Shown: piece by piece, positions 11,727-45,297 of the stretch
Layout: every line of letters begins with the position of its first letter
Numbering within the stretch: the stretch's first letter is position 1
Source of the DNA: an uncultured Gammaproteobacteria bacterium
GTDB taxonomy: Bacteria; Pseudomonadota; Gammaproteobacteria; Steroidobacterales; JABDMI01
Length of the DNA: 58,801 nucleotides
Assembly: GCA_905479875.1 (NCBI GenBank)
Contig: CAJQOG010000153.1
Coordinates: forward strand, 1 to 58,801
Direction of reading: 5' to 3'
Notes under the pieces: generated by a model
What the model saw: only the letters and a program-made list of their open reading frames with translations
Told to the model about the DNA's origin: nothing
Databases searched by the model: none
Made by a program: the position numbers and the translations under genes

Positions 11727-14426
11727 TTAAATTTTTTCTTCAACAACAAGTGCTTTTTTTTCTAGTTTAGGCCAAATTTCTAATAATTCATTTTTAGCTT
11801 GTTGTACTTGAGCGGTGATAGTGTTGATTGATAAGTTATCTGCTGACCATAAAACTGGATTAATTAGGGTTTCTATTTCGTTTATTTTCTTTTGCAGTTT
11901 CTTAAAGCTTGTCATACTAATAGTGCCGTTTAAATTATGTACTTCATGGAACAACGATTGCTGCATATCTGTAAGGTCGTGAATATTGAATATTTCTTTT
12001 AGCTTGTTTAGATGTTCACGAATAGAGTTTCTACTTAATTCGTCTATTCGTTCTTGAATAGTTTGTCCAGTTATAACTTCAGGTGTTATGGGCTCCACTG
12101 GCTCAGCATGAGGTTCACCTTGGATGTCATTTAAAGCGTATTTTTTAATGGTTTCAACAAGTAGCTGGTCATTCAAGGGTTTAATTAGACAATCAGACAT
12201 ACCAGCTTGTATAAAGTGCTGATATTCAACTGTAGAGGTACTGGCTGTAATTCCTATAATAGGCGTTTTAGTGTCTTTAAATTCATTTCTAATTACTTTT
12301 GTAAGCTCTATGCCACTTAGTTTTGGCATGTGTGCATCCATGAGTATGGCATGATATTTGCGAGCTTTATAGAGCTCAAGTGCTGCACTTCCATCAGGAC
12401 AGCTTATAACCTTTGCACCAAATGAATTTAAGCGTTCTTCGATGATTTTTCGATTTAGATCATTATCCTCTGCAAGTAATAGAACATAGCCTTTCAGTGT
12501 ATCTTCAGTGGTTGTTTTGCTTGTCGATAATGTTGAAAGTGCTTTATTATTTGAAAATGTCTGACCCAGTTCAATATTGCTTATATTGTTATTAAGAATT
12601 GTGAAAGGCTCGATAAGCTTTAAATCCGACTTTGATAAGTAATCTAATGGTGCATAAATAAATACGTTTTTTGCAATTGTGTAAAGATTTTTTGCCCAGA
12701 TGGTTAATGATTTTATGTGTTCATAATCAAGAAGTATAAGAATTTTAGCGTCATTATCGTGTTGTAATACATTTTTATTATTGAGTAAAGAGTGCCAGCT
12801 GTTAAGAGTAACTTTATGACTAACCGGTTTAAGCCATTCCGGTATGTAAATATCCATATCCGAAATACTGTTGTATACAACTACTTTATACTTTATTAGT
12901 GCCGGTGTTCTTATTTCGTTGGCTTTTTGTGTTCCAGTCTGACTTGTCAAGTCGACTGTAAAACTACTGCCTTTATCAATGTTGCTCTTAACTGAAAGCT
13001 TAGCTCCAATAATCTCGCAAAGTTCTTTACAAATCCCTAGGCCCAAACCAGTGCCATGAACATCAGTTGTATCACGGTCTAAACGCGTATATGGGTCGAA
13101 TATAGTTTCTATGTCTTGTTCGGAGATTCCTTTCCCTGTATCGGTAATTGAGATAGAGATAGAAATTGTTTTTGAATCTATTTCTCGGCATGCAATATGT
13201 ATATACAATATACCGTTATGTGTGTATTTAACAGCGTTAGAAATAAGGTTAGCTAAAATTTGCCTAAATTTTATAGCATCGATTTTAATTGTTTGAGGTA
13301 ATTTTTCGCTAATATCAATGAAAAAATGATTGCGATGTTCAATGACTAAAAAAGATAACCCCATTGTTATTTCTTGTATCATTTTTCTTATATCGACATC
13401 ATTATAATCCAAATCTATTTTTCCAGCTTCTAAACGCGATAAGCTTAAAAAATTTGAAACTAACTCAAGTAAATTAGCGTTTGCTATTTGGATGGCATTT
13501 ACATGACTTAATTGTTTTCGGTCTAATGGAGTGCTGAGTAATAACCTACTATAGCCATCGATTGTATATAAAGGAGTTCTAAAGTCGTGGCTTAAGTTTG
13601 CAAAAAATGATGATTTAAGAGTTGTCTGGTTATTCAGGTCCTTATTTTGAATTGCTAGATGTGCATTTCTTTCTTCTAAGTCGATGAAGTTTTTTTCTAA
13701 TGTGTTTACATATTGAGAATCGTAACGATCAGAAAGTTCAGCAGTTTTGTCAATAAAGCTAAGTATTGGCTGAGCTTCCGAATTTAAAACACTAGAAATG
13801 CTATTTGAATTAGAGTATTCAGTTGTTAAGTTACGTTCTGCCTTTTGATTGATCTCTGTTATAAAATTTATGACTTGTTCTTTTTCCAACTCCCGATTTT
13901 TATTGATTGAAAGGTAAACTAGTAGTGGAATAATTGTCAGAATTAAGCTGCTGATTAAGACCCAGAATAATTCAAAAATATTAAGGTAAAATAGAGAAGA
14001 AAGTGTAAGAGTGAAGTATGTGGATAAGTTAGAAGGTGACTTTATATTTTTTACAGGACAGTTAGTTACGTTTTCAAATAGGGAGCGTATGAATGAATAT
14101 GAATGTATTGAATTGTCTGTGATAATTTCTTGTGCAGAAGAAATTTGCCAATGAGCAATTCTCGGAGCATTGCTAAGGGTATTCAGCTCAGCAGCCTCAC
14201 TGATACCTTGAAAATAATTTTTTAAAGCAGGTACATTTTTATAGCTAACGTCAGAGTGAATTGTTTGTGCAATATCTACACATATTTGGATCAGTTCGAT
14301 TTTCTGTTGTCTATAGTCATTACCAAGCTGAACCAGGGCAACAGCAATATAGAAAAAGAATATACAGAAACTAATCCGTAGCTTACGTCCGTATTGCTTG
14401 TCCGATTTGTTATAATTTCTATTCAT
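11727..14426 (-). CDS. Unorthodox hybrid sensor histidine kinase (TM-periplasmic-TM, HisKA, HATPase, extra alpha/beta region, receiver, HPt). Possibly a BarA/GacS-type orthologue.
   Basis: H-box FFANLSHDFRTPL (His280), an N-box (LISNAVKYT), and G-boxes DTGKGI and GTGLGLGICKE. The receiver is LLLAEDNDLNRK...ILMDAHMPKLSG (Asp697) ...LIKP. The C-terminal HPt-like region is FHEVHNLNG (His830). Its position next to rlmD mirrors the barA-rlmD adjacency I remember in E. coli. Confidence 0.85.
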   Translation of the reverse strand: MNRNYNKSDKQYGRKLRISFCIFFFYIAVALVQLGNDYRQQKIELIQICVDIAQTIHSDVSYKNVPALKNYFQGISEAAELNTLSNAPRIAHWQISSAQEIITDNSIHSYSFIRSLFENVTNCPVKNIKSPSNLSTYFTLTLSSLFYLNIFELFWVLISSLILTIIPLLVYLSINKNRELEKEQVINFITEINQKAERNLTTEYSNSNSISSVLNSEAQPILSFIDKTAELSDRYDSQYVNTLEKNFIDLEERNAHLAIQNKDLNNQTTLKSSFFANLSHDFRTPLYTIDGYSRLLLSTPLDRKQLSHVNAIQIANANLLELVSNFLSLSRLEAGKIDLDYNDVDIRKMIQEITMGLSFLVIEHRNHFFIDISEKLPQTIKIDAIKFRQILANLISNAVKYTHNGILYIHIACREIDSKTISISISITDTGKGISEQDIETIFDPYTRLDRDTTDVHGTGLGLGICKELCEIIGAKLSVKSNIDKGSSFTVDLTSQTGTQKANEIRTPALIKYKVVVYNSISDMDIYIPEWLKPVSHKVTLNSWHSLLNNKNVLQHDNDAKILILLDYEHIKSLTIWAKNLYTIAKNVFIYAPLDYLSKSDLKLIEPFTILNNNISNIELGQTFSNNKALSTLSTSKTTTEDTLKGYVLLLAEDNDLNRKIIEERLNSFGAKVISCPDGSAALELYKARKYHAILMDAHMPKLSGIELTKVIRNEFKDTKTPIIGITASTSTVEYQHFIQAGMSDCLIKPLNDQLLVETIKKYALNDIQGEPHAEPVEPITPEVITGQTIQERIDELSRNSIREHLNKLKEIFNIHDLTDMQQSLFHEVHNLNGTISMTSFKKLQKKINEIETLINPVLWSADNLSINTITAQVQQAKNELLEIWPKLEKKALVVEEKI

Positions 14427-14476
14427 TTTATAAAGATTGATTCACGTTGTGATTTACTATTTTATTGGGAACCCTA

Positions 14477-15253
14477 ATGCAGACCGTACTCGCTTTTGAT
14501 ATTGAAACCATACCAGATATTGCCAGTGCAAAGAACTACCTTGAGCTAAATGATCTAGATGATAAATCTGTTGCTGAAATTATGTTTACTCGTGCACGGC
14601 AAAAATCTGGGTCAGAGTTTCTGCCTTTGCATATGCATCGAATTGCGGCTATCTCAGTTACTATGCAGCGAGCAGGGCAGATCACAGTTTGGTCATTAGG
14701 TGACGAAAACTCTTCAGAAGCTGAAATTGTGCAGCGATTTTTTGACGGTATTGATAAATATCAACCAACTTTAGTCAGCTGGAATGGTTCTGGTTTTGAT
14801 CTACCTGTTTTGCATTACCGAGCTTTATTGCATGGAATTCAAGCGCCAACCTATTGGGATGTAGGCGAACACTCGCGTGATGCTAAATTTAATAATTATT
14901 TAGGTCGTTTTCACTGGCGACATATTGATCTTATGGACGTTTTAGCGGCGTACCAAATGCGCGGTCGAGCACCTTTGGATGAAATTGCGGTTATGTTGGG
15001 TTTCCCTGGAAAGCTTGGGATGTCAGGAGATAAAGTATGGGGAGCCTATCTAGAAGGAAAAATAAGTGATATTCGAGATTATTGTGAAACGGATACGTTA
15101 AATACCTTTTTAGTCTATTCGCGTTTTGAGCTTATGCGTGGAAATTTAGACCAAACTGGCTACGAAACTCTAATACAGAAGGTTAAAGACTTTTTGAAAG
15201 CGCAACAAAAGCCTCATTTCGAGGATTTTTTAAAGTCTTGGGAGACAAGTTAA
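14477..15253 (+). CDS. Predicted DEDDy 3'-5' exonuclease related to the PolB exonuclease domain (COG3298-like)
   Basis: Exo motifs are FDIETIPD (ExoI), SWNGSGFDLPVL (ExoII) and YCETD (ExoIII, Y-x3-D). I chose the ATG at 14477 (MQTVLAFDIET); the ORF is open from a TTG at 14465. Confidence 0.75.
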   Translation: MQTVLAFDIETIPDIASAKNYLELNDLDDKSVAEIMFTRARQKSGSEFLPLHMHRIAAISVTMQRAGQITVWSLGDENSSEAEIVQRFFDGIDKYQPTLVSWNGSGFDLPVLHYRALLHGIQAPTYWDVGEHSRDAKFNNYLGRFHWRHIDLMDVLAAYQMRGRAPLDEIAVMLGFPGKLGMSGDKVWGAYLEGKISDIRDYCETDTLNTFLVYSRFELMRGNLDQTGYETLIQKVKDFLKAQQKPHFEDFLKSWETS

Positions 15254-16569
15254 TGGCTCGTTCTAATGCATGGAGAAAACCATTTATCACAACTATTGAA
15301 GACTTATCGCATGATGGTCGTGGTGTTGCGAAAGTCGATGGCAAGGTGATTTTCATTCCAGGTGCTTTGCCAGGTGAAGAAGTAGAAGCCCAACGAGTTA
15401 GTCGCTCTAAAAAACATGAGACAGCTAAGCTTCTTGAAATTATCAAAAAATCTGAAGATAGAATTGAGCCCAAATGTGCCAGCTATACCGTTTGTGGTGG
15501 CTGTTCAATGCAGCACTTAAGTTCTGAAAACCAGATTAAAAATAAACAACAACTCATGCTAGAAAATTTTCAACGCATAGGTAAAGTTGCGCCTGAAAAT
15601 ATACTCCTGCCCCTAACTGCGGAAACTTGGGGGTATCGTCGACGCGCACGTTTAGGAGTACGTTATGTGCATAAAAAAGGCCGTGTTTTGGTTGGGTTTA
15701 GAGAAAAATTTAGTAATTTTATTACTGATATGCCAGCCTGTGAAGTGATAGATACTCGTTTAAACAAGCTGTTGCCTGAGCTATCTGATCTTATTTCGTC
15801 TCTAGAAATAAAGCGAGAAGTACCGCAAATTGAAGCATCGGTGGGTGATCATGCTTTAGCACTAGTATTTAGAATTCTTGCTGATTTAAATACAGACGAC
15901 CAAGCGAAATTTGAGCAATTTGCTAATGAACATAATGATGTGCATGTTTATCTGCAACGTGGCGGTTTAGATACTGTTACACCTCTAAAAGAATACCCAT
16001 CTTTAACCTATGATTTGGGAGACGGTTTGGTTTTGGATTTTGAGCCGGTTGATTTTGTACAAGTAAATGCTGGTTTAAATCGCTTAATGATACAACGAGC
16101 AATAAAATACTTAGATTGCAAGCCGGCAGATAAAGTTTTAGATTTATTTTGTGGCTTAGGAAATTTCACTTTTCCAATTGCAAAACATGTTGCTAGGGTT
16201 GTTGGTGTAGAAGGTGATAAAACCTTAGTGCAAAGAGCTCATGCAAATGCATTAAAAAATAATACTGAGAATGTTGAGTATCATGTCAGTAATTTATTTG
16301 AAGAGTTTGATAAGCAAGCATGGGCAAAAGAAAAATACGATACGCTTTTGATTGATCCACCGCGAGCAGGTGCTGAAATGGTTGTAAAAAGTAAAGGGAT
16401 GTTTGGAGTTAGGCGTATTGTTTATATTTCATGTCATCCTGGAAGTTTAGCAAGAGATGCCGGAATTTTGGTAAATGAACAAGGCTTTAAAATGGTTCAC
16501 GCGGGTGTTATGGATATGTTTCCGCATACAAGCCATGTCGAGTCAATTGCCATTTTTGAACGAGCTTAA
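15253..16569 (+). CDS. rlmD: 23S rRNA (uracil1939-C5)-methyltransferase RlmD/RumA
   Basis: An N-terminal TRAM-like region is followed by the Fe-S Cys motif (CASYTVCGGCSMQH), the SAM motif DLFCGLGNF, DPPRAG and the catalytic SC(H)P. The start ATG overlaps the upstream stop (TAATG). Confidence 0.93.
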   Translation: MARSNAWRKPFITTIEDLSHDGRGVAKVDGKVIFIPGALPGEEVEAQRVSRSKKHETAKLLEIIKKSEDRIEPKCASYTVCGGCSMQHLSSENQIKNKQQLMLENFQRIGKVAPENILLPLTAETWGYRRRARLGVRYVHKKGRVLVGFREKFSNFITDMPACEVIDTRLNKLLPELSDLISSLEIKREVPQIEASVGDHALALVFRILADLNTDDQAKFEQFANEHNDVHVYLQRGGLDTVTPLKEYPSLTYDLGDGLVLDFEPVDFVQVNAGLNRLMIQRAIKYLDCKPADKVLDLFCGLGNFTFPIAKHVARVVGVEGDKTLVQRAHANALKNNTENVEYHVSNLFEEFDKQAWAKEKYDTLLIDPPRAGAEMVVKSKGMFGVRRIVYISCHPGSLARDAGILVNEQGFKMVHAGVMDMFPHTSHVESIAIFERA

Positions 16570-16577
16570 TTTCTTTT

Positions 16578-17519
16578 ATGGCGTTAGAAATTGAACGGAA
16601 ATTTTTAATCACTAGTGATTCTTGGCGTAATTTTGTCTCGACAACTCTTGATATACAACAAGCTTACTTTAATCGAGATGATGCTTATTCTGTACGGGTA
16701 CGAATTGAGAATGACTCTGCTAATTTAAATATTAAGTCCAAAACTCTTGGAGCAAGTCGTGATGAGTATGAGTATGCTATTCCAGTAGCTGATGCCCAAG
16801 AGATGCTAAATAAACTTCCGGAAAAAATACAAAAAAAACGTCATTTAGTTAAATTCTCTAATCACACTTGGGAAATAGATGAGTTTTATGGTACTAACTC
16901 AGGCCTAATTGTTGCCGAAATTGAACTTAACAGTGAAGATGAAAAATTTGAACTTCCAGATTGGTGCGGTGATGAAGTTACTTATGATGGGCGTTTTTAT
17001 AATATTGCTCTAGTTGCCCAGCCGTATAAATACTGGGTTACGCATATAGATATTAGGACTGATTCGCAAACTTTATTTGGCATAAACCCTTTGGGTGAGT
17101 GTGTGCTTGAGTATTTAATTAGTACTGCTAAAAATGGTTTAGGTGAAATTAAAAATAGTCAATGTACTCCTAGAGGTTTACATACAATACGCGCAAAAAT
17201 TGGAAATAATCAAGCTAAGGACACGGTGTTTGTTTCGAGACGACCTACTGGAGAAATTTGGTCGCCTCAGTTAGATTCAGAGTCTCCCGATAGAGATTGG
17301 ATTCTTAGTCGTATTATGTGGCTATCAGGTTGTGAAAAAAATAAAAACCGCCTTGGTGATGTTGATAGTATGCAAAGATATATTTATATTCACGGTACAC
17401 CGCCATCAGAGTCTTTAGGAGTCCCACAATCACATGGGTGTATTCGCATGCGGAATGAAGATGTGATCGAGTTATTTGAACATTGTTTTATAGGAACAAC
17501 GGTAATGATCCATGAGTAA
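16578..17519 (+). CDS. Fusion protein with an N-terminal CYTH (triphosphate tunnel metalloenzyme) domain and a C-terminal YkuD (L,D-transpeptidase catalytic fold) domain. No signal peptide.
   Basis: The N-terminus MALEIERKFLI carries the CYTH ExExK motif, with further acidic strands (WEIDEF, VAEIEL). The C-terminus has the YkuD hallmarks YIYIHGTP...SHGCIRM. The ORF is continuous over 313 aa. Confidence 0.8.
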   Translation: MALEIERKFLITSDSWRNFVSTTLDIQQAYFNRDDAYSVRVRIENDSANLNIKSKTLGASRDEYEYAIPVADAQEMLNKLPEKIQKKRHLVKFSNHTWEIDEFYGTNSGLIVAEIELNSEDEKFELPDWCGDEVTYDGRFYNIALVAQPYKYWVTHIDIRTDSQTLFGINPLGECVLEYLISTAKNGLGEIKNSQCTPRGLHTIRAKIGNNQAKDTVFVSRRPTGEIWSPQLDSESPDRDWILSRIMWLSGCEKNKNRLGDVDSMQRYIYIHGTPPSESLGVPQSHGCIRMRNEDVIELFEHCFIGTTVMIHE

Positions 17520-18573
17520 AAAAGAACAGGATAATAATCTTTCATTTTTAGGCCCATTGATGGTGGACGTTGATGGGTTGGTTTTGTCTGAAGAAGATAA
17601 GCAAGTATTGACTAATCCTCTTATTGGTGGAGTCATTTTATTTACTAGAAATTATGCCAATAAAGATCAACTCAAAACGCTTGTTGCTGAGATTAAGGCA
17701 TTACGAAAACCAGAACTGTTAATAGCTGTGGACCACGAGGGTGGTCGAGTTCAACGTTTTCGTGAAGATTTTACTCCTTTACCTGCACTTGCAAAAATTT
17801 GTACTACTGAAACGGTTGAAACTTCACACATCGAGCTTGCTAAACAACATGCATGGCTTATGGCTGCTGAAGTTTTAGAATGTGGCATTGATATTAGCTT
17901 TGCTCCAGTAATTGATTTGGATTGGAAAATGTCAGAAGTTATTGGTGACAGGGCATTACATCAACATCCAAGAGCAGTCGCAAGACTTGCTGGCGCTTAT
18001 GTACAAGGAATGCATGCTGCTGGCATGGCGGCAACGGGTAAACATTTTCCAGGACACGGATCGGTTGAAGCTGATTCGCATGTGGCCCTACCCATCGACA
18101 GGCGACCACTTGAAGCGATTCGAAATGATATTAGCCCCTATAGGCCTTTAATCGAAAATGGTCTTGATGCCGTTATGATGGCACATGTTATTTATAATAA
18201 ATTAACTCGTATACCTGCTGGGTTTTCAGAATATTGGATACAAAGCGAACTTCGTGGCCGATTAGGTTTTAAAGGCGTTGTGTTTACAGATGATTTAAGC
18301 ATGAGAGCCGCTGATGTTGTTGGTGATATGCAAGAACGCGTTAATTTAGCCTTATATGCAGGCTGTGATATGGCTCTTGTGTGCAATGACAGGCCGGCAG
18401 TTCTCAATTTAATTGAAAATTTGAGTGAGAAAGTATGGCGAAATCATAGTGATGAAATTATTCAAAATCGCTTAAAAACTTTGTATTCAAAACCTAGTTT
18501 CGATACTCAAAAATTACAGTCATTGACTGAATGGCAGATTGCAGTTAACACTGTGACAGCATTAAACGATTAG
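17512..18573 (+). CDS. nagZ: Beta-N-acetylhexosaminidase NagZ (peptidoglycan recycling)
   Basis: GGVILF, VDHEGGRVQRF, KHFPGHG and FTDDLSM motifs of GH3 NagZ. It overlaps the upstream gene by 8 nt. Confidence 0.95.
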   Translation: MSKKEQDNNLSFLGPLMVDVDGLVLSEEDKQVLTNPLIGGVILFTRNYANKDQLKTLVAEIKALRKPELLIAVDHEGGRVQRFREDFTPLPALAKICTTETVETSHIELAKQHAWLMAAEVLECGIDISFAPVIDLDWKMSEVIGDRALHQHPRAVARLAGAYVQGMHAAGMAATGKHFPGHGSVEADSHVALPIDRRPLEAIRNDISPYRPLIENGLDAVMMAHVIYNKLTRIPAGFSEYWIQSELRGRLGFKGVVFTDDLSMRAADVVGDMQERVNLALYAGCDMALVCNDRPAVLNLIENLSEKVWRNHSDEIIQNRLKTLYSKPSFDTQKLQSLTEWQIAVNTVTALND

Positions 18574-18583
18574 AGTAAAGAAT

Positions 18584-19123
18584 ATGCAGTCTTGGAATGA
18601 TATAGTAGATAGTTCAGAATGTGTCGCCTCACGTTCTCAGGTGACGGATGCGATAAATGACTTAGCTGATAAAGTTACAGCTGATTATCAAACAAAAAAT
18701 CCAATTCTTTTGTGCTTAATGAATGGCGGCTTATTTCTAACTTCGGAGTTAAGTAAACGTTTATCGTTTCCCTTGCGTTTAGATTATTTGCATGCCACAC
18801 GTTATCGTGGAGAGACCACGGGCAAGGATTTGCAGTGGTTAAAAATGCCAAGTTTTAATTTAGCCAATGAGCATGTATTAATAATTGATGATATTTATGA
18901 TGAAGGAATTACTTTAAAAGAAGTTGAAGAAAAACTTTCACAACAAAAGGCCGCTTCAATCAAAACTTTGGTTTTAGTTGATAAACAACATACACGTAAG
19001 CCAAGAAATTATTCAGTTGACTATGTAGGCATGACCTTAGAAGACAAATACCTTTTTGGTTGTGGAATGGACTATCAGGGACACTGGCGACACCTCCCGC
19101 AAATTTATGCAATCACTGAGTGA
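18584..19123 (+). CDS. hpt: Hypoxanthine-guanine phosphoribosyltransferase family protein
   Basis: Type I PRT PRPP-binding loop VLIIDDIYDEGITL; 179 aa. Confidence 0.85.
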   Translation: MQSWNDIVDSSECVASRSQVTDAINDLADKVTADYQTKNPILLCLMNGGLFLTSELSKRLSFPLRLDYLHATRYRGETTGKDLQWLKMPSFNLANEHVLIIDDIYDEGITLKEVEEKLSQQKAASIKTLVLVDKQHTRKPRNYSVDYVGMTLEDKYLFGCGMDYQGHWRHLPQIYAITE

Positions 19124-19128
19124 TTTTT

Positions 19129-19869
19129 ATGAGTAAAGAGATGACAAAATTAGCTATCATTGGTGGCACGGGTATGACAAAACTTGATGGCTTAGAAATT
19201 ATTCGTCGTGAAGCGGTTTATACACCTTATGGTGAAACTTCTGGTTTTTTGATTTTTGGAAAATTGAATGAAAGAGAAATCTGTTTTTTACCACGTCATG
19301 GACATTCGTATACTATTCCTCCGCATAAAGTTAATTACCGAGCCAATATCTGGGCCTTGAAATCATTTGGAATTACGGATGTTATTGCAGTAAATGCGGT
19401 TGGCGGGATTGCTAAAAATACACCGCCAGGCATAGTAGTTATACCCGACCAAATAATCGATTACACCTATGGAAGAGAGCATACTTTTTCAGATGGAAAT
19501 AAGCCTAATGTTCAACATATCGATTTTACAAAGCCGTATTCTGAAGAGTTGCGTATTGAACTAATATCAGCCGCAGAAAAGGCAAATGTTGAAATAGTAG
19601 AGGATGGAGTTTATGCGGTGACACAAGGGCCACGTTTAGAATCTGCAGCTGAAGTAAACAGACTGGAAAATGATGGTTGTACTTTAATCGGTATGACTGG
19701 AATGCCTGAGGCGGGATTAGCAAGAGAACTTGGTCTTAATTATGTTAGTTGTGCATTTGTAGTAAATTGGGCAGCAGGTCGTGGAGAATTAGATATACAT
19801 GCCGATATTGAAAAATATCTTAATAAAGGCATGCATTCGGTAAGAGCAATTCTTAAAGCATTTATTTAA
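19129..19869 (+). CDS. mtnP: S-methyl-5'-thioadenosine/S-methyl-5'-thioinosine phosphorylase (PNP/MTAP family). The start is uncertain among 19120, 19129 and 19141.
   Basis: LAIIGGTG, FLPRHG, PHKVNYRANIWAL and TQGPRLES..IGMTGMPE motifs of the MTAP family. Confidence 0.9.
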   Translation: MSKEMTKLAIIGGTGMTKLDGLEIIRREAVYTPYGETSGFLIFGKLNEREICFLPRHGHSYTIPPHKVNYRANIWALKSFGITDVIAVNAVGGIAKNTPPGIVVIPDQIIDYTYGREHTFSDGNKPNVQHIDFTKPYSEELRIELISAAEKANVEIVEDGVYAVTQGPRLESAAEVNRLENDGCTLIGMTGMPEAGLARELGLNYVSCAFVVNWAAGRGELDIHADIEKYLNKGMHSVRAILKAFI

Positions 19870-20771: not shown

Positions 20772-21623
20772 TTAAAAAACTTCATCGGGTGTTTTAGCGT
20801 CAATTGCTAAGGCATGAATATCTGTTTGCATCATACTTCCTAATGCTTTATAAATGAACTGATGCCTTTGAATTGAGCGCATATCTGTAAAGACTTTACT
20901 GATGATATTTAACCGAAAATGTCCACCACCATCTTCTGCGCCAGAATGTCCGGCATGTAAGTGGCTTTCATTTTCTAGGTTGATTGAAGCATCAGGCATG
21001 GCCTCTGTGAGTAAGCGCGTAATAAGTTCCTCTCGAGTGAACTCGGTTGATTCAGTCTGAGAAGTTTCTTTTTCCTTGGTTTCGTCTTCAATAAATTCAC
21101 CATTCTTCATTAGCCAAATGCCTTGTAGGATGGAGAAAACCAGAGTTGCACCTAGCAGACCAAAAACTTTAAACTTAACCCAAAATGCCATTGAGTAGTT
21201 ATAGGCAACGAATAAATTTACAAATCCGATAACAACAAAAAATATCACCCACATTAAACTGAGTTTGAACCAATTTTTATCGCTCAGTAATACTGCTTTA
21301 CCAAAAAGTGATTTAATTAATGGTTGCTTTGCAAATTTATGCGTAGCAAGAAAAGCAATTGCAAATGCCCAGTTAGCAATGCTCGGTTTCCATTGTATAA
21401 ATTTTTCATTTTTAAAGAAAAGTGTAAGGGCCCCTAAAATTAGAATGAAAGCTAAAGTACCTTTGTGCATTGTACTTAGTTTGCCATCAAGCTTCCAAAT
21501 ATAGAGCATACCTAAGCTGTAGCTAAGCATTAGTGCTGCTGTTGCTAAATATATATCTTTGCCTGTTGCAAAAAAAACAACTAGAAATAACCCAAGAGGG
21601 AGGTATTCAGCTAATTGACGCAT
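20772..21623 (-). CDS. yciB: Fusion of intracellular septation protein A (YciB/IspZ) with a C-terminal BolA-family domain
   Basis: Residues 1 to about 180 align by eye with E. coli YciB (LPL..F...Y....IY.ATAAL; FIQWKP; PLIKSLFGK; KFKVFGL). Residues from about 205 to 283 carry the BolA pattern (ENESHLHAGH...GGHFRLNIISKVF...RHQFIYKAL...IHALAIDAKTPDE). Confidence 0.85.
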   Translation of the reverse strand: MRQLAEYLPLGLFLVVFFATGKDIYLATAALMLSYSLGMLYIWKLDGKLSTMHKGTLAFILILGALTLFFKNEKFIQWKPSIANWAFAIAFLATHKFAKQPLIKSLFGKAVLLSDKNWFKLSLMWVIFFVVIGFVNLFVAYNYSMAFWVKFKVFGLLGATLVFSILQGIWLMKNGEFIEDETKEKETSQTESTEFTREELITRLLTEAMPDASINLENESHLHAGHSGAEDGGGHFRLNIISKVFTDMRSIQRHQFIYKALGSMMQTDIHALAIDAKTPDEVF

Positions 21624-37889: not shown

Positions 37890-39203
37890 TTATGGTGACT
37901 CTGTAAAGTTAGAATGCCATTTTTGTACATCTTCACTCAGTTCGGCTTCATCTAAATTAGTCAAAAGTTTCTGATTTAATAAATGTTTACCTGCTACCCA
38001 AACGTCACTTACCTGACTTGCACTGGCAGAATAAACAATTTGTGAAACGGGATTATGCACTGGTTGTGTATTTAATGCTGATAGATCAATGCAACAAATA
38101 TCGGCCCACTTATCAACTTCTAAACTACCAATTTCGTCGCCAAGTCCAAGTGCTTTGGCTCCATTAATTGTTGCCATTTCAATAGCCGTTTGTGCACTTA
38201 CAGCAGTTGCATCTTTTGCAACCACCTTGGCCAGCATTGCAGCGCTACGCATTTCGCCTAACATGTCATGATCATTGTTACTCGCTGCACCATCAGTGCC
38301 TAGAGCAACATTTACTCCGGCTTTAATCAATTTGTCTACTGGACAAAAACCTGAAGCTAATTTCATATTGGACTCAGGACAGTGCACAACGTTTACACCA
38401 TTATGGGCAAGTTTTTCAATTTCCTCATCAGAAAGTTCAGTCATGTGCACCGCAATTAAATCAGGAGAGAGTACGCCTAAATTTTCCATGCGCTGCATTG
38501 GTCTTTGCCCGGTTTTTTCTACACTATCGGAAACTTCAGATTCAGTTTCATGTAAATGTATATGAATAGGTTTTTCTAATTCATATGCTGTAGCAACAAT
38601 ACGTTTAAAATTATCATCATTAACGGTGTAGGGTGCATGTGGTGCAAACACGGTTGAAATTAATGGGTCCGTTTTGTATTCGTCAGAAACAGCTAAACCT
38701 TTTTCAAAATACTCATCGGCGTTACTGGCCCATGCACTTGGAAAATCAATCACAATCATTCCAACGGTGGCTCGCATGCCCAAGTCTGAGGCTGTTCGTG
38801 CCACCACATCTGGATAAAAATACATATCATGGAAACAAGTGGTACCTGACTTTAACATCTCTGCGATTCCTAATTGTGTGCCTAAGCGCATGAACTCGGG
38901 ATTTATTTGACTCGCTTCGGCAGGCCAAATATGGTCGTTTAACCAAGTCATTAAAGGTAGGTCATCGGCTAAGCCACGGAATAAACTCATTGCGATATGT
39001 GTATGAGCATTAATCAGGCCCGGCATGACCACGTGATTGGATCTCTCAATAATGTGTCTTGCAGAGTATTTTTCAGCTGCTTCATCAATTGGCAAAAGAT
39101 CAATTATCCTTCCATGTTCGATTGCAATGGAGTGATTTTCAAGGACTTTGAACTCGGGAGCTACTGGTAAAACCCAGCGTGCGTTTATTAATGTATCAAT
39201 CAT
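37890..39203 (-). CDS. mtaD: Amidohydrolase of the TRZ/ATZ family, likely 5'-methylthioadenosine/S-adenosylhomocysteine deaminase
   Basis: [39 protein letters not shown]. Its position beside ubiG and mtnA corresponds to Pseudomonas PA3170. Confidence 0.85.
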
Positions 39204-44244: not shown

Positions 44245-45297
44245 ATGTATTCTGATTTTTCACCCATACGTTGGAAAAATAACTGTCTAGAGTTATTGGA
44301 TCAGCGTTTATTGCCTGATAAAGAAGTTTGGTGGACGCATGAGTTTCCTGAAGCTACTGCAAGAGCTATTAGCGATATGATGGTAAGAGGGGCTCCTGCA
44401 ATTGGAATTACTGCTGCTTACGGCGTAGCCTTGGCTTGTATGCAGCTTGCAAAGTCGACCAATGCTGATTGGCGTGGCAAATTGAATAAAGATCTAGAGT
44501 TACTAGCACAATCACGCCCTACAGCAGTTAATTTGTTTTGGGCCCTAGAGCGCATGCAAACTGTGCTAAAAAGTGCTGCAAGCCCATCACGAGCTTTTAC
44601 ACTTGCCTTAAATGAAGCTAAAGCTATTCATCAAGAAGACTACCGAATGAATCTTGCAATCGGTGAATTTGGTTCTTCCTTATTGCCTAAAGAAGCCAAT
44701 GTACTTACTCATTGTAATACTGGTGCTTTAGCCACAGGAGGTCATGGAACAGCGCTTGGAGTTATTCGTACGGCATGGGGTAAAGGAAATTTGAAGCATG
44801 TTTATGCTAATGAAACTCGTCCTTGGTTGCAAGGTTCGCGTTTAACAATATGGGAATTATTAAGGGAAAATATTCCATGTACTTTGCAGGCTGATTCAGC
44901 AGCGGCATTGTTAATGAAGACTAAAAAAATTGATTGGGTAATTGTCGGCGCCGACAGAATTGCAGCTAATGGTGACACGGCAAATAAGATTGGCACCTAT
45001 TCTTTGGCCTTGTTGGCTAAAGCCCATGGAGTAAAATTTATGGTTGCGGCTCCCACAACTACAATTGATATGGCGCTCGGGTCTGGAAACTTAATCACAA
45101 TTGAAGAGAGAGAAACAGGTGAACTGTGGCGAGCTGCGAGTCAGGCCGATGCTCCAGAAAAATTGAATTTTCATAACCCAGTATTTGATGTTACACCTGC
45201 TAATTTGATTGATGCGATTGTAACTGAAAAAGGTATTGCAAAATCGAATGGTAATGGTGAGTTTAATAATGCTATTTCGGTGTGGTTCTCCGCATAG
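44245..45297 (+). CDS. mtnA: S-methyl-5-thioribose-1-phosphate isomerase
   Basis: eIF-2B-alpha/beta/delta-like family motifs: VRGAPAIG, SRPTAVNL, THCNTGALAT, ETRPWLQGSRLT, GADRIAANGDTANKIGTY. Confidence 0.93.
   Translation: MYSDFSPIRWKNNCLELLDQRLLPDKEVWWTHEFPEATARAISDMMVRGAPAIGITAAYGVALACMQLAKSTNADWRGKLNKDLELLAQSRPTAVNLFWALERMQTVLKSAASPSRAFTLALNEAKAIHQEDYRMNLAIGEFGSSLLPKEANVLTHCNTGALATGGHGTALGVIRTAWGKGNLKHVYANETRPWLQGSRLTIWELLRENIPCTLQADSAAALLMKTKKIDWVIVGADRIAANGDTANKIGTYSLALLAKAHGVKFMVAAPTTTIDMALGSGNLITIEERETGELWRAASQADAPEKLNFHNPVFDVTPANLIDAIVTEKGIAKSNGNGEFNNAISVWFSA

Follow-up and report, generated by a model that had tools for sequence, protein, structure and literature searches.

A CYTH–ElsL fusion protein encoded next to nagZ in an uncultured gammaproteobacterium

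INTRODUCTION

The L,D-carboxypeptidase ElsL of Acinetobacter baumannii is a cytoplasmic enzyme that depends on Cys138 and cuts tetrapeptide but not pentapeptide muropeptides, and E. coli LdcA can substitute for it (Dai 2021, PMC8649774). In Nitrosomonas europaea, the CYTH protein NeuTTM (NE1496) acts with high specificity as an inorganic triphosphatase and has no significant cyclase activity. A Tyr28/Lys52 catalytic dyad has been proposed for it, its physiological role is not known, and its authors suggested a proofreading role (PMC3440374). Here we describe a protein of 313 amino acids (aa) in which a NeuTTM-like CYTH domain is joined to an ElsL-type YkuD domain. It is encoded directly upstream of nagZ on a stretch of 58,801 nucleotides (nt) from an uncultured marine gammaproteobacterium (contig CAJQOG010000153.1 of assembly GCA_905479875.1); this whole stretch is referred to below as the window.

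The fusion resembles A. baumannii ElsL (WP_000077301) in its signal-less YkuD fold, predicted to be cytoplasmic, its SHGC catalytic cysteine and its recycling context, and ElsL is its best hidden Markov model (HMM) match. But A. baumannii ElsL is a stand-alone protein of ~164 aa, whereas the fusion has 313 aa with CYTH in front, and linkage to nagZ goes unmentioned in the ElsL paper (PMC8649774). E. coli LdcA (peptidase S66) and Vibrio LdcV share with the ElsL half the predicted reaction, cytoplasmic conversion of tetrapeptide to tripeptide. The Ser-His-Glu triad of LdcA and the zinc of LdcV, however, belong to unrelated folds and chemistry, with no sequence relationship to the fusion. NeuTTM (2FBL, 3TYP) is the closest solved sequence and fold to the CYTH half, with which it shares the ExExK motif, the Tyr/Lys dyad and a length of ~150 aa. 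Identity is nonetheless ~30%, and NeuTTM stands alone with no known partner, whereas the CYTH subfamily considered here is gammaproteobacterial and recycling-linked. In E. coli YgiF, a CYTH triphosphatase domain is likewise joined to a second domain, but this is CHAD, which binds polyphosphate and is not a peptidase, and YgiF has no equivalent of NeuTTM Lys52 (PMC3440374).

RESULTS

Layout of the fusion protein

The fusion occupies one reading frame, which divides into two domains:

16578..17519, + strand: CYTH–ElsL fusion, a single 313-aa open reading frame (ORF) (ORF list, two Pfam domains, ~37 like clusters, indel-free contigs)
16578..17036, + strand: CYTH (triphosphate tunnel metalloenzyme) domain, NeuTTM-like, residues 1–153 (Pfam PF01928, 2fbl/3typ, invariant residues)
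17037..17519, + strand: ElsL-type YkuD domain, predicted L,D-carboxypeptidase, residues 154–313 plus the stop codon (PF03734, NF040925, H272/C288)

The ORF starts with ATG and ends with TAA at 17517–17519. Pfam searches of the 313-aa protein returned CYTH (residues 3–134, E 5.7e-15) and YkuD (residues 156–311, E 1e-20) only, with no Peptidase_S66 and no peptidoglycan-binding domain. An original prediction, made from the letters of the window, had described a CYTH–YkuD ORF of this length at this position. The ORF list, both Pfam domains and the presence in the protein of the EIERKF and SHGCIRM motifs (the latter noted originally as HGCIRM) bear this out.

The ExExK motif begins at residue 4, the AlphaFold model has a β-strand from residue 2, and the highest Kyte–Doolittle mean over 19 residues is 1.04. 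With these features, a signal peptide could not be accommodated. Judged by these simple measures, the protein is predicted to be cytoplasmic and without an export signal, in agreement with the earlier view that neither a signal peptide nor a transmembrane segment is present. The AlphaFold model is compact and confident, with a predicted local distance difference test (pLDDT) score of 93.9 and a predicted TM-score (pTM) of 0.86. The junction is nearly linker-free: in PYKYW-VT-HIDIR, the first ElsL strand comes almost directly after the last CYTH motif. Searches of the PDB by sequence and with Foldseek found no solved structure that contains both CYTH and YkuD.

Authenticity and origin of the fused reading frame

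A false indel could have joined two adjacent genes during assembly, and many relatives do carry two separate genes just 1–60 nt apart. Against such an artefact, a search of 5.8 billion proteins identified ~37 protein clusters (313–341 aa, 48–98% identity) that share the CYTH-plus-YkuD architecture, with Nevskiaceae and Salinisphaera proteins among the named members. All 14 clusters of the window's own clade are fused, and the nearest twelve are exactly 313 aa long. In two other loci, which lie within long high-quality contigs of 3.1 Mb (L001) and 4.3 Mb (L002), the fusion is one uninterrupted ORF each, as verified by checking the frame. Moreover, contigs from runs X4 and X5 of a different, independent study cover positions 16500–17600 with 23 substitutions and 0 indels. 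Inside the ORF, 17 substitutions separate these contigs from the window, 11 synonymous and 6 non-synonymous; between strains, synonymous changes make up 7 of the 11 in the CYTH half and 4 of the 6 in the ElsL half. The ORF is thus real, and a frameshift artefact, a danger named in the original prediction itself, has a negligible probability.

CYTH and ElsL are separate adjacent genes in many Gammaproteobacteria, as a Rosetta-stone comparison suggested at the outset was meant to reveal. We found ~18 loci in which a CYTH gene (155–160 aa, with its own stop) is followed 1–60 nt on by an ElsL gene (~160 aa), often in another frame. One of these (L003), inspected by eye, has the order rlmD, CYTH, a 3-nt gap, ElsL and nagZ. 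Whether a locus was separate or fused was decided by extending the reading frame from the CYTH start. Full-length tblastn matches had made L003, L006, L042, L045, L061 and L066 look like fusions; all have a stop after CYTH and were reassigned as adjacent genes.

A maximum-likelihood tree of 59 CYTH-plus-ElsL rows requires three or more changes of the fused state, and well-supported branches force two or more of them. Every one of the 14 rows in the clade of the window is fused. A second fused pair (P0036, P0037) is nested among unfused rows, and a large clade with Salinisphaera and Nevskiaceae proteins contains 22 fused rows and three adjacent-gene rows. We infer that the fused state was gained or lost more than once and was stably kept. 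Comparison of fused and separate loci shows the apparent origin of the fusion, namely loss of the stop codon between neighbouring co-transcribed genes.

The C-terminal half as a predicted ElsL-type carboxypeptidase

The top family for the ElsL half is NCBIfam NF040925, 'cell wall-recycling L,D-carboxypeptidase ElsL' (E 3e-53, 180 bits, model positions 23–158 of 164). Models of periplasmic L,D-transpeptidases gave no more than 28 bits, over ~45 residues round the active site only. The score of 180 bits is under the curated cutoff of 270 bits for NF040925, an 'exception' model. A stand-alone relative (L046) likewise scores under the cutoff, at 187.6 bits, and the model appears to be tuned to close relatives of the Acinetobacter protein. 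H272 (in YIHG) and C288 (in SHGCIRM) are invariant in 19 fused proteins, and Foldseek matches the C-terminal half of the model to B. subtilis YkuD and LdtMt2. The ElsL half is 55–65% identical to signal-less stand-alone YkuD proteins of 160–195 aa. Furthermore, Alcanivorax, Thiomicrospira and Marinobacterium are found both among the surveyed loci and in the published table of ElsL orthologues (Dai 2021, PMC8649774). Because the score of L046 is also below the cutoff, and in view of the 55–65% identity and the genera common to both sets, we regard the ElsL half as a likely member of the published ElsL family in the broad sense.

On these grounds, the ElsL half is very probably an L,D-carboxypeptidase. 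An LdcA-like cytoplasmic role was part of the original prediction, and the family scores (180 versus ≤28 bits) argue for it. The idea itself is not new, a cytoplasmic YkuD carboxypeptidase being already known and biochemically shown (PMC8649774).

The published orthologue filter kept only proteins of 105–200 aa and dropped hits of >200 aa (PMC8649774). At 313 aa, the fusion falls outside this range, which was a search convenience and not a biological criterion. It is because of this filter that neither CYTH–ElsL nor ElsL–GNAT fusions are mentioned in that work. The latter is a second kind of ElsL fusion, a signal-less protein of ~300–330 aa with an N-terminal ElsL domain and a C-terminal GNAT acetyltransferase domain. 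Its members are found in Aromatoleum petrolei (P0044), Azoarcus sp. DN11 (P0049) and ~15 more clusters (Aromatoleum, Azoarcus and other Rhodocyclales). Like the CYTH–ElsL fusion, it joins ElsL to a small-molecule enzyme domain. It differs in that ElsL is N-terminal, the partner is an acetyltransferase, and the P0044 and P0049 loci show no nagZ linkage.

The N-terminal half as a NeuTTM-like CYTH domain

Among solved structures, the sequences nearest to the CYTH half are 3typ and 2fbl, both of NeuTTM (E ~2e-12). The same entries come out on top by fold (Foldseek, TM-score 0.69–0.70 on the target), with a CYTH β-barrel. In the HMMER alignment to 2fbl/3typ, Tyr28 and Lys52 of NeuTTM correspond to Y30 and K53 of the fusion. 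E4, E6, K8, Y30, R40, R42, K53, E63, K86, R88, D101, E114 and E116 are all invariant in 19 fused proteins and 20 stand-alone orthologues. Stand-alone CYTH proteins of 155–160 aa form an abundant family (5454 matches at E ≤ 0.001), to which the CYTH half is 54–61% identical. Some databases label relatives of the CYTH half 'adenylate cyclase'; the nearest characterised relative is NeuTTM, which lacks significant cyclase activity. Since the catalytic residues are conserved in fused and stand-alone proteins alike, we lean towards the CYTH half being an active triphosphatase.

nagZ and the surrounding gene run

The fusion gene is the third of six closely spaced genes. The others are:

14465..15253, + strand: PolB-exonuclease-like 3'-5' exonuclease, first of the six-gene run (Pfam PF10108, E 4e-91)
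15238..16569, + strand: rlmD, 23S rRNA m5U1939 methyltransferase, ending 8 nt before the fusion start (NCBIfam NF009639, 560 bits)
17512..18573, + strand: nagZ, beta-N-acetylhexosaminidase (NCBIfam NF003740, 448 bits versus a cutoff of 207)
18584..19869, + strand: hpt, hypoxanthine-guanine phosphoribosyltransferase, and S-methyl-5'-thioinosine phosphorylase, the end of the run (NF006605, 225 bits; NF006599, 355 bits)

The ATG of nagZ at 17512 overlaps the fusion stop, which ends at 17519, by 8 nt, exactly as predicted. Of the possible NagZ starts, this longer one is probably genuine: the NagZ orthologues inspected have an LGPLM motif at the N-terminus, and this motif precedes the next possible start codon. 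Across the run (14465–19869: exonuclease, rlmD, CYTH–elsL, nagZ, hpt, phosphorylase), the spacings are -16, +8, -8, +10 and -4 nt. Spacing is thus equally tight among functionally unrelated genes, and the nagZ overlap alone says little. The link to nagZ that was first proposed is kept down to ~50% identity; the tight packing is not specific to nagZ.

In L001 and L002, the gene that immediately follows the fusion is nagZ, and in many other loci nagZ immediately follows stand-alone ElsL. In Gammaproteobacteria, stand-alone ElsL also occurs right before nagZ without the other neighbours (L019, L026, L034, L040, L052, L054, L058, L068, L074 and L075), and this pairing carries weight. For Betaproteobacteria, tblastn detected no nagZ near ElsL in Gallionellaceae and Rhodocyclales loci, while Methylophilaceae ElsL loci have nagZ 2–5 kb downstream. 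Within the window, no further recycling gene was seen among the 36 of 54 ORFs that were scanned.

From rlmD to the phosphorylase gene, L001 and L002 have the same gene order as the window, except that an MscS-type channel gene is inserted after nagZ in L002. The order of hpt and the phosphorylase gene recurs in many further loci. A block of rnc, era, recO and pdxJ, upstream in the window, recurs on the same side in L002 and inverted on the far side in L001; lepA was seen in L002 only of these two loci.

Neighbourhoods of related CYTH genes

To survey the CYTH genes, we searched a metagenome collection, using aligned stand-alone CYTH proteins as the query, and supplemented this with eight database look-ups, which together gave 88 CYTH loci. 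Counts refer to the 48 in which CYTH is flanked by 1.5 kb or more on each side. Since the loci were chosen by similarity to the CYTH of the window and lack phylogenetic independence, the counts are descriptive: in 27 of the 48, a gene for recycling or import lies close to CYTH, and none is nearby in the remaining 21. Among the 27, ElsL, NagZ, a binding protein or permeases lie downstream in 21, and an AmpG-family transporter is the neighbour in 6. rlmD is upstream of CYTH in 12 of the recycling-linked loci and is missing from the other 15, whereas rlmD without a recycling gene was found in 0 of the 48.

AmpG-linked CYTH genes occur in L086 (5724-7468), L093 (4456-6468), L102, L119, L132 and L143. 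Five of the AmpG neighbours were tested, and all scored above the TIGR00901 cutoff (398–516 bits versus 350). AmpG and CYTH are mostly divergent, with 38–68 nt between the starts; in L093 they are co-directional and 12 nt apart. The AmpG proteins of these loci are only 36–71% identical to each other.

Other loci combine CYTH with a peptide importer, in the order CYTH, SBP_bac_5 (family-5 binding protein), ElsL, two Dpp/Opp-type permeases and NagZ (L046:1868-5602, L016:4359-8381, L109, L169:5564-10400 and L167:6862-10525). No ATPase genes were found near these importer genes. Such an operon could represent MppA/Opp-like uptake of murein peptides coupled directly to their trimming.

CYTH and nagZ are also found together without ElsL. 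In L098, CYTH runs straight onto nagZ with a 4-nt overlap. Loci of 66–71% G+C (L103, L107, L110, L125, L126 and L129) have the order rlmD, CYTH, a DSBA-like gene, nagZ, hpt and phosphorylase, with no ElsL there. The ~900-nt gene between CYTH and nagZ in these high-GC loci had been considered as LdcA; it proved to encode a DSBA-like thioredoxin-fold protein with a CPWC or CPYC motif. Where ElsL, NagZ and the importer are all missing, the neighbours of CYTH vary (argS, sugar epimerases, response regulators, molybdenum-cofactor genes), and a Pfam tally of 125 such neighbours contained no recycling family beyond AmpG-like transporters of the major facilitator superfamily. Fusion is more restricted: among the top 120 proteins of 172–548 aa with the same type of CYTH, CYTH plus YkuD is the sole two-domain architecture.

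Other genes of the window

The PF10108 exonuclease gene and the start of rlmD share 16 nt. Many loci have a homologue upstream of rlmD; in L001, L006, L032, L050 and L136 the two genes are directly adjacent. Three genes at separate places in the window belong, or could belong, to the methylthioinosine branch of methionine salvage. They are the S-methyl-5'-thioinosine phosphorylase gene (19120–19869; NF006599, 355 bits) and those for an Amidohydro_1 protein (37890–39203), which could be methylthioadenosine deaminase, and an IF-2B-family protein (44245–45297), which could be MtnA. On the - strand, the product of a 283-aa ORF at 20772–21623 resembles a YciB-type membrane protein that ends in a BolA-like domain. 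The same strand encodes, at 11727–14426, a hybrid sensor histidine kinase of 899 aa that includes receiver and Hpt-like regions; its gene is flanked by acpS and the exonuclease gene. In its place, L001 has a response regulator/Hpt protein nearby.

DISCUSSION

The best overall explanation of these data is, in our judgement, a cytoplasmic protein with two catalytic domains, an ElsL carboxypeptidase and a NeuTTM-type CYTH. We assign this reading a probability of roughly 0.7. The ElsL half would remove the terminal D-alanine from recycled tetrapeptide stems, by means of Cys288 and His272, and the resulting tripeptide would re-enter cell-wall synthesis. It would work downstream of the co-translated NagZ, after removal of N-acetylglucosamine. 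The most likely reaction of the CYTH half would be metal-dependent hydrolysis of inorganic triphosphate or of a triphosphate like it. The two activities would be chemically independent yet co-regulated.

Several points weigh against this explanation. The ElsL half scores 90 bits short of the curated NF040925 cutoff, and an interface between the two domains is indicated only indirectly, through the pTM of the model. Together, lepA, rnc, era, recO, pdxJ, rlmD, nagZ, hpt and the phosphorylase gene form a slowly rearranging block of unrelated housekeeping genes, so adjacency within it could reflect inherited order rather than function. The survey counts are descriptive, and 21 of the 48 CYTH loci lack a recycling gene nearby. 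To our knowledge, moreover, no known recycling step (NagZ, AmpD, AnmK, Mpl, MupP/AmgK/MurU) makes or uses inorganic triphosphate.

Other readings of either half can be weighed against the same data. The YkuD half might be an L,D-transpeptidase-type enzyme acting on another cytoplasmic substrate, with no part in recycling as a carboxypeptidase; its sub-cutoff score and its distance from the assayed A. baumannii enzyme are in keeping with this. We consider it very improbable, given that stand-alone relatives from published ElsL genera score alike (187.6 bits), that periplasmic L,D-transpeptidase models cover so little of the domain at such low scores, and that the ties to nagZ, to the peptide importer and to AmpG-linked CYTH indicate recycling. 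The CYTH half, for its part, might be regulatory, binding a phosphorylated ligand or making a cyclic nucleotide in the manner of class IV adenylate cyclases, and so controlling the ElsL half allosterically. Recycling would then be tied to nucleotide or energy status. CYTH domains generally bind organic phosphates, some databases use the cyclase label, and the near linker-free junction and high pTM suggest a fixed arrangement of the two domains. Yet NeuTTM, the nearest relative, is a specific triphosphatase without significant cyclase activity (PMC3440374), conservation of all hydrolytic residues fits catalysis better than mere binding, and in most relatives CYTH is a separate protein. A regulatory CYTH is therefore unlikely, if less remote than a non-carboxypeptidase YkuD half.

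A much stronger contender, which we place somewhat short of an even chance, is that CYTH is a housekeeping 'metabolite-proofreading' triphosphatase that sat in an old syntenic block and was fused neutrally to ElsL by stop-codon loss. A proofreading role is what the NeuTTM authors proposed (PMC3440374). The six-gene run mixes unrelated functions at equal tightness, and L001 and L002 have kept the larger block. CYTH has no recycling neighbour in 21 of 48 loci, where argS, sugar epimerase or molybdenum-cofactor contexts occur instead, and the high-GC loci have a DSBA-like gene between CYTH and nagZ, with ElsL not there. It is above all the mixed housekeeping block and these 21 loci that favour a passenger. 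However, CYTH remains with recycling genes in the 15 loci that lack rlmD and is never with rlmD alone. Its position beside AmpG is a second, unrelated arrangement, seen next to AmpG proteins only 36–71% identical to each other and, in L093, in the same direction with a 12-nt gap. The fused state has changed at least two to three times and is kept across ~50% sequence divergence, and ElsL is the sole recurrent fusion partner among the best 120 proteins of 172–548 aa. What favours an accessory role is that CYTH is independently arranged with AmpG, that it stays with the module where rlmD is absent, and that the fused state has changed repeatedly. Between CYTH as a true part of the recycling module and CYTH as a syntenic passenger, the odds are about even. 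The more general proposal, that gammaproteobacterial NeuTTM-type CYTH triphosphatases are a working component of cytoplasmic peptidoglycan recycling, is tentative, and we would not put it as high as even.

In the literature we searched, nothing links CYTH to peptidoglycan recycling, muropeptide, nagZ, ampG or ampD, and no CYTH–YkuD fusion is described; the one paper that names both domains treats them separately. Within the searchable literature, then, what is new is the CYTH–ElsL architecture and the wider association of CYTH with recycling genes. If the link reflects nothing more than inherited gene order, what remains is a known enzyme with a domain architecture not reported before. ElsL-type enzymes determine β-lactam susceptibility and cell shape in Acinetobacter, and the occurrence of ElsL as CYTH and GNAT fusions and in importer operons widens the view of how recycling is organised outside E. 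coli. NeuTTM-like inorganic triphosphatases gain a first cellular context, through fusion to or neighbourhood with ElsL, NagZ, a peptide importer and AmpG. Should the role of CYTH in recycling prove true, it would point to an undescribed triphosphate- or phosphate-bearing metabolite, or to a phosphate-dependent control step, in muropeptide recycling.

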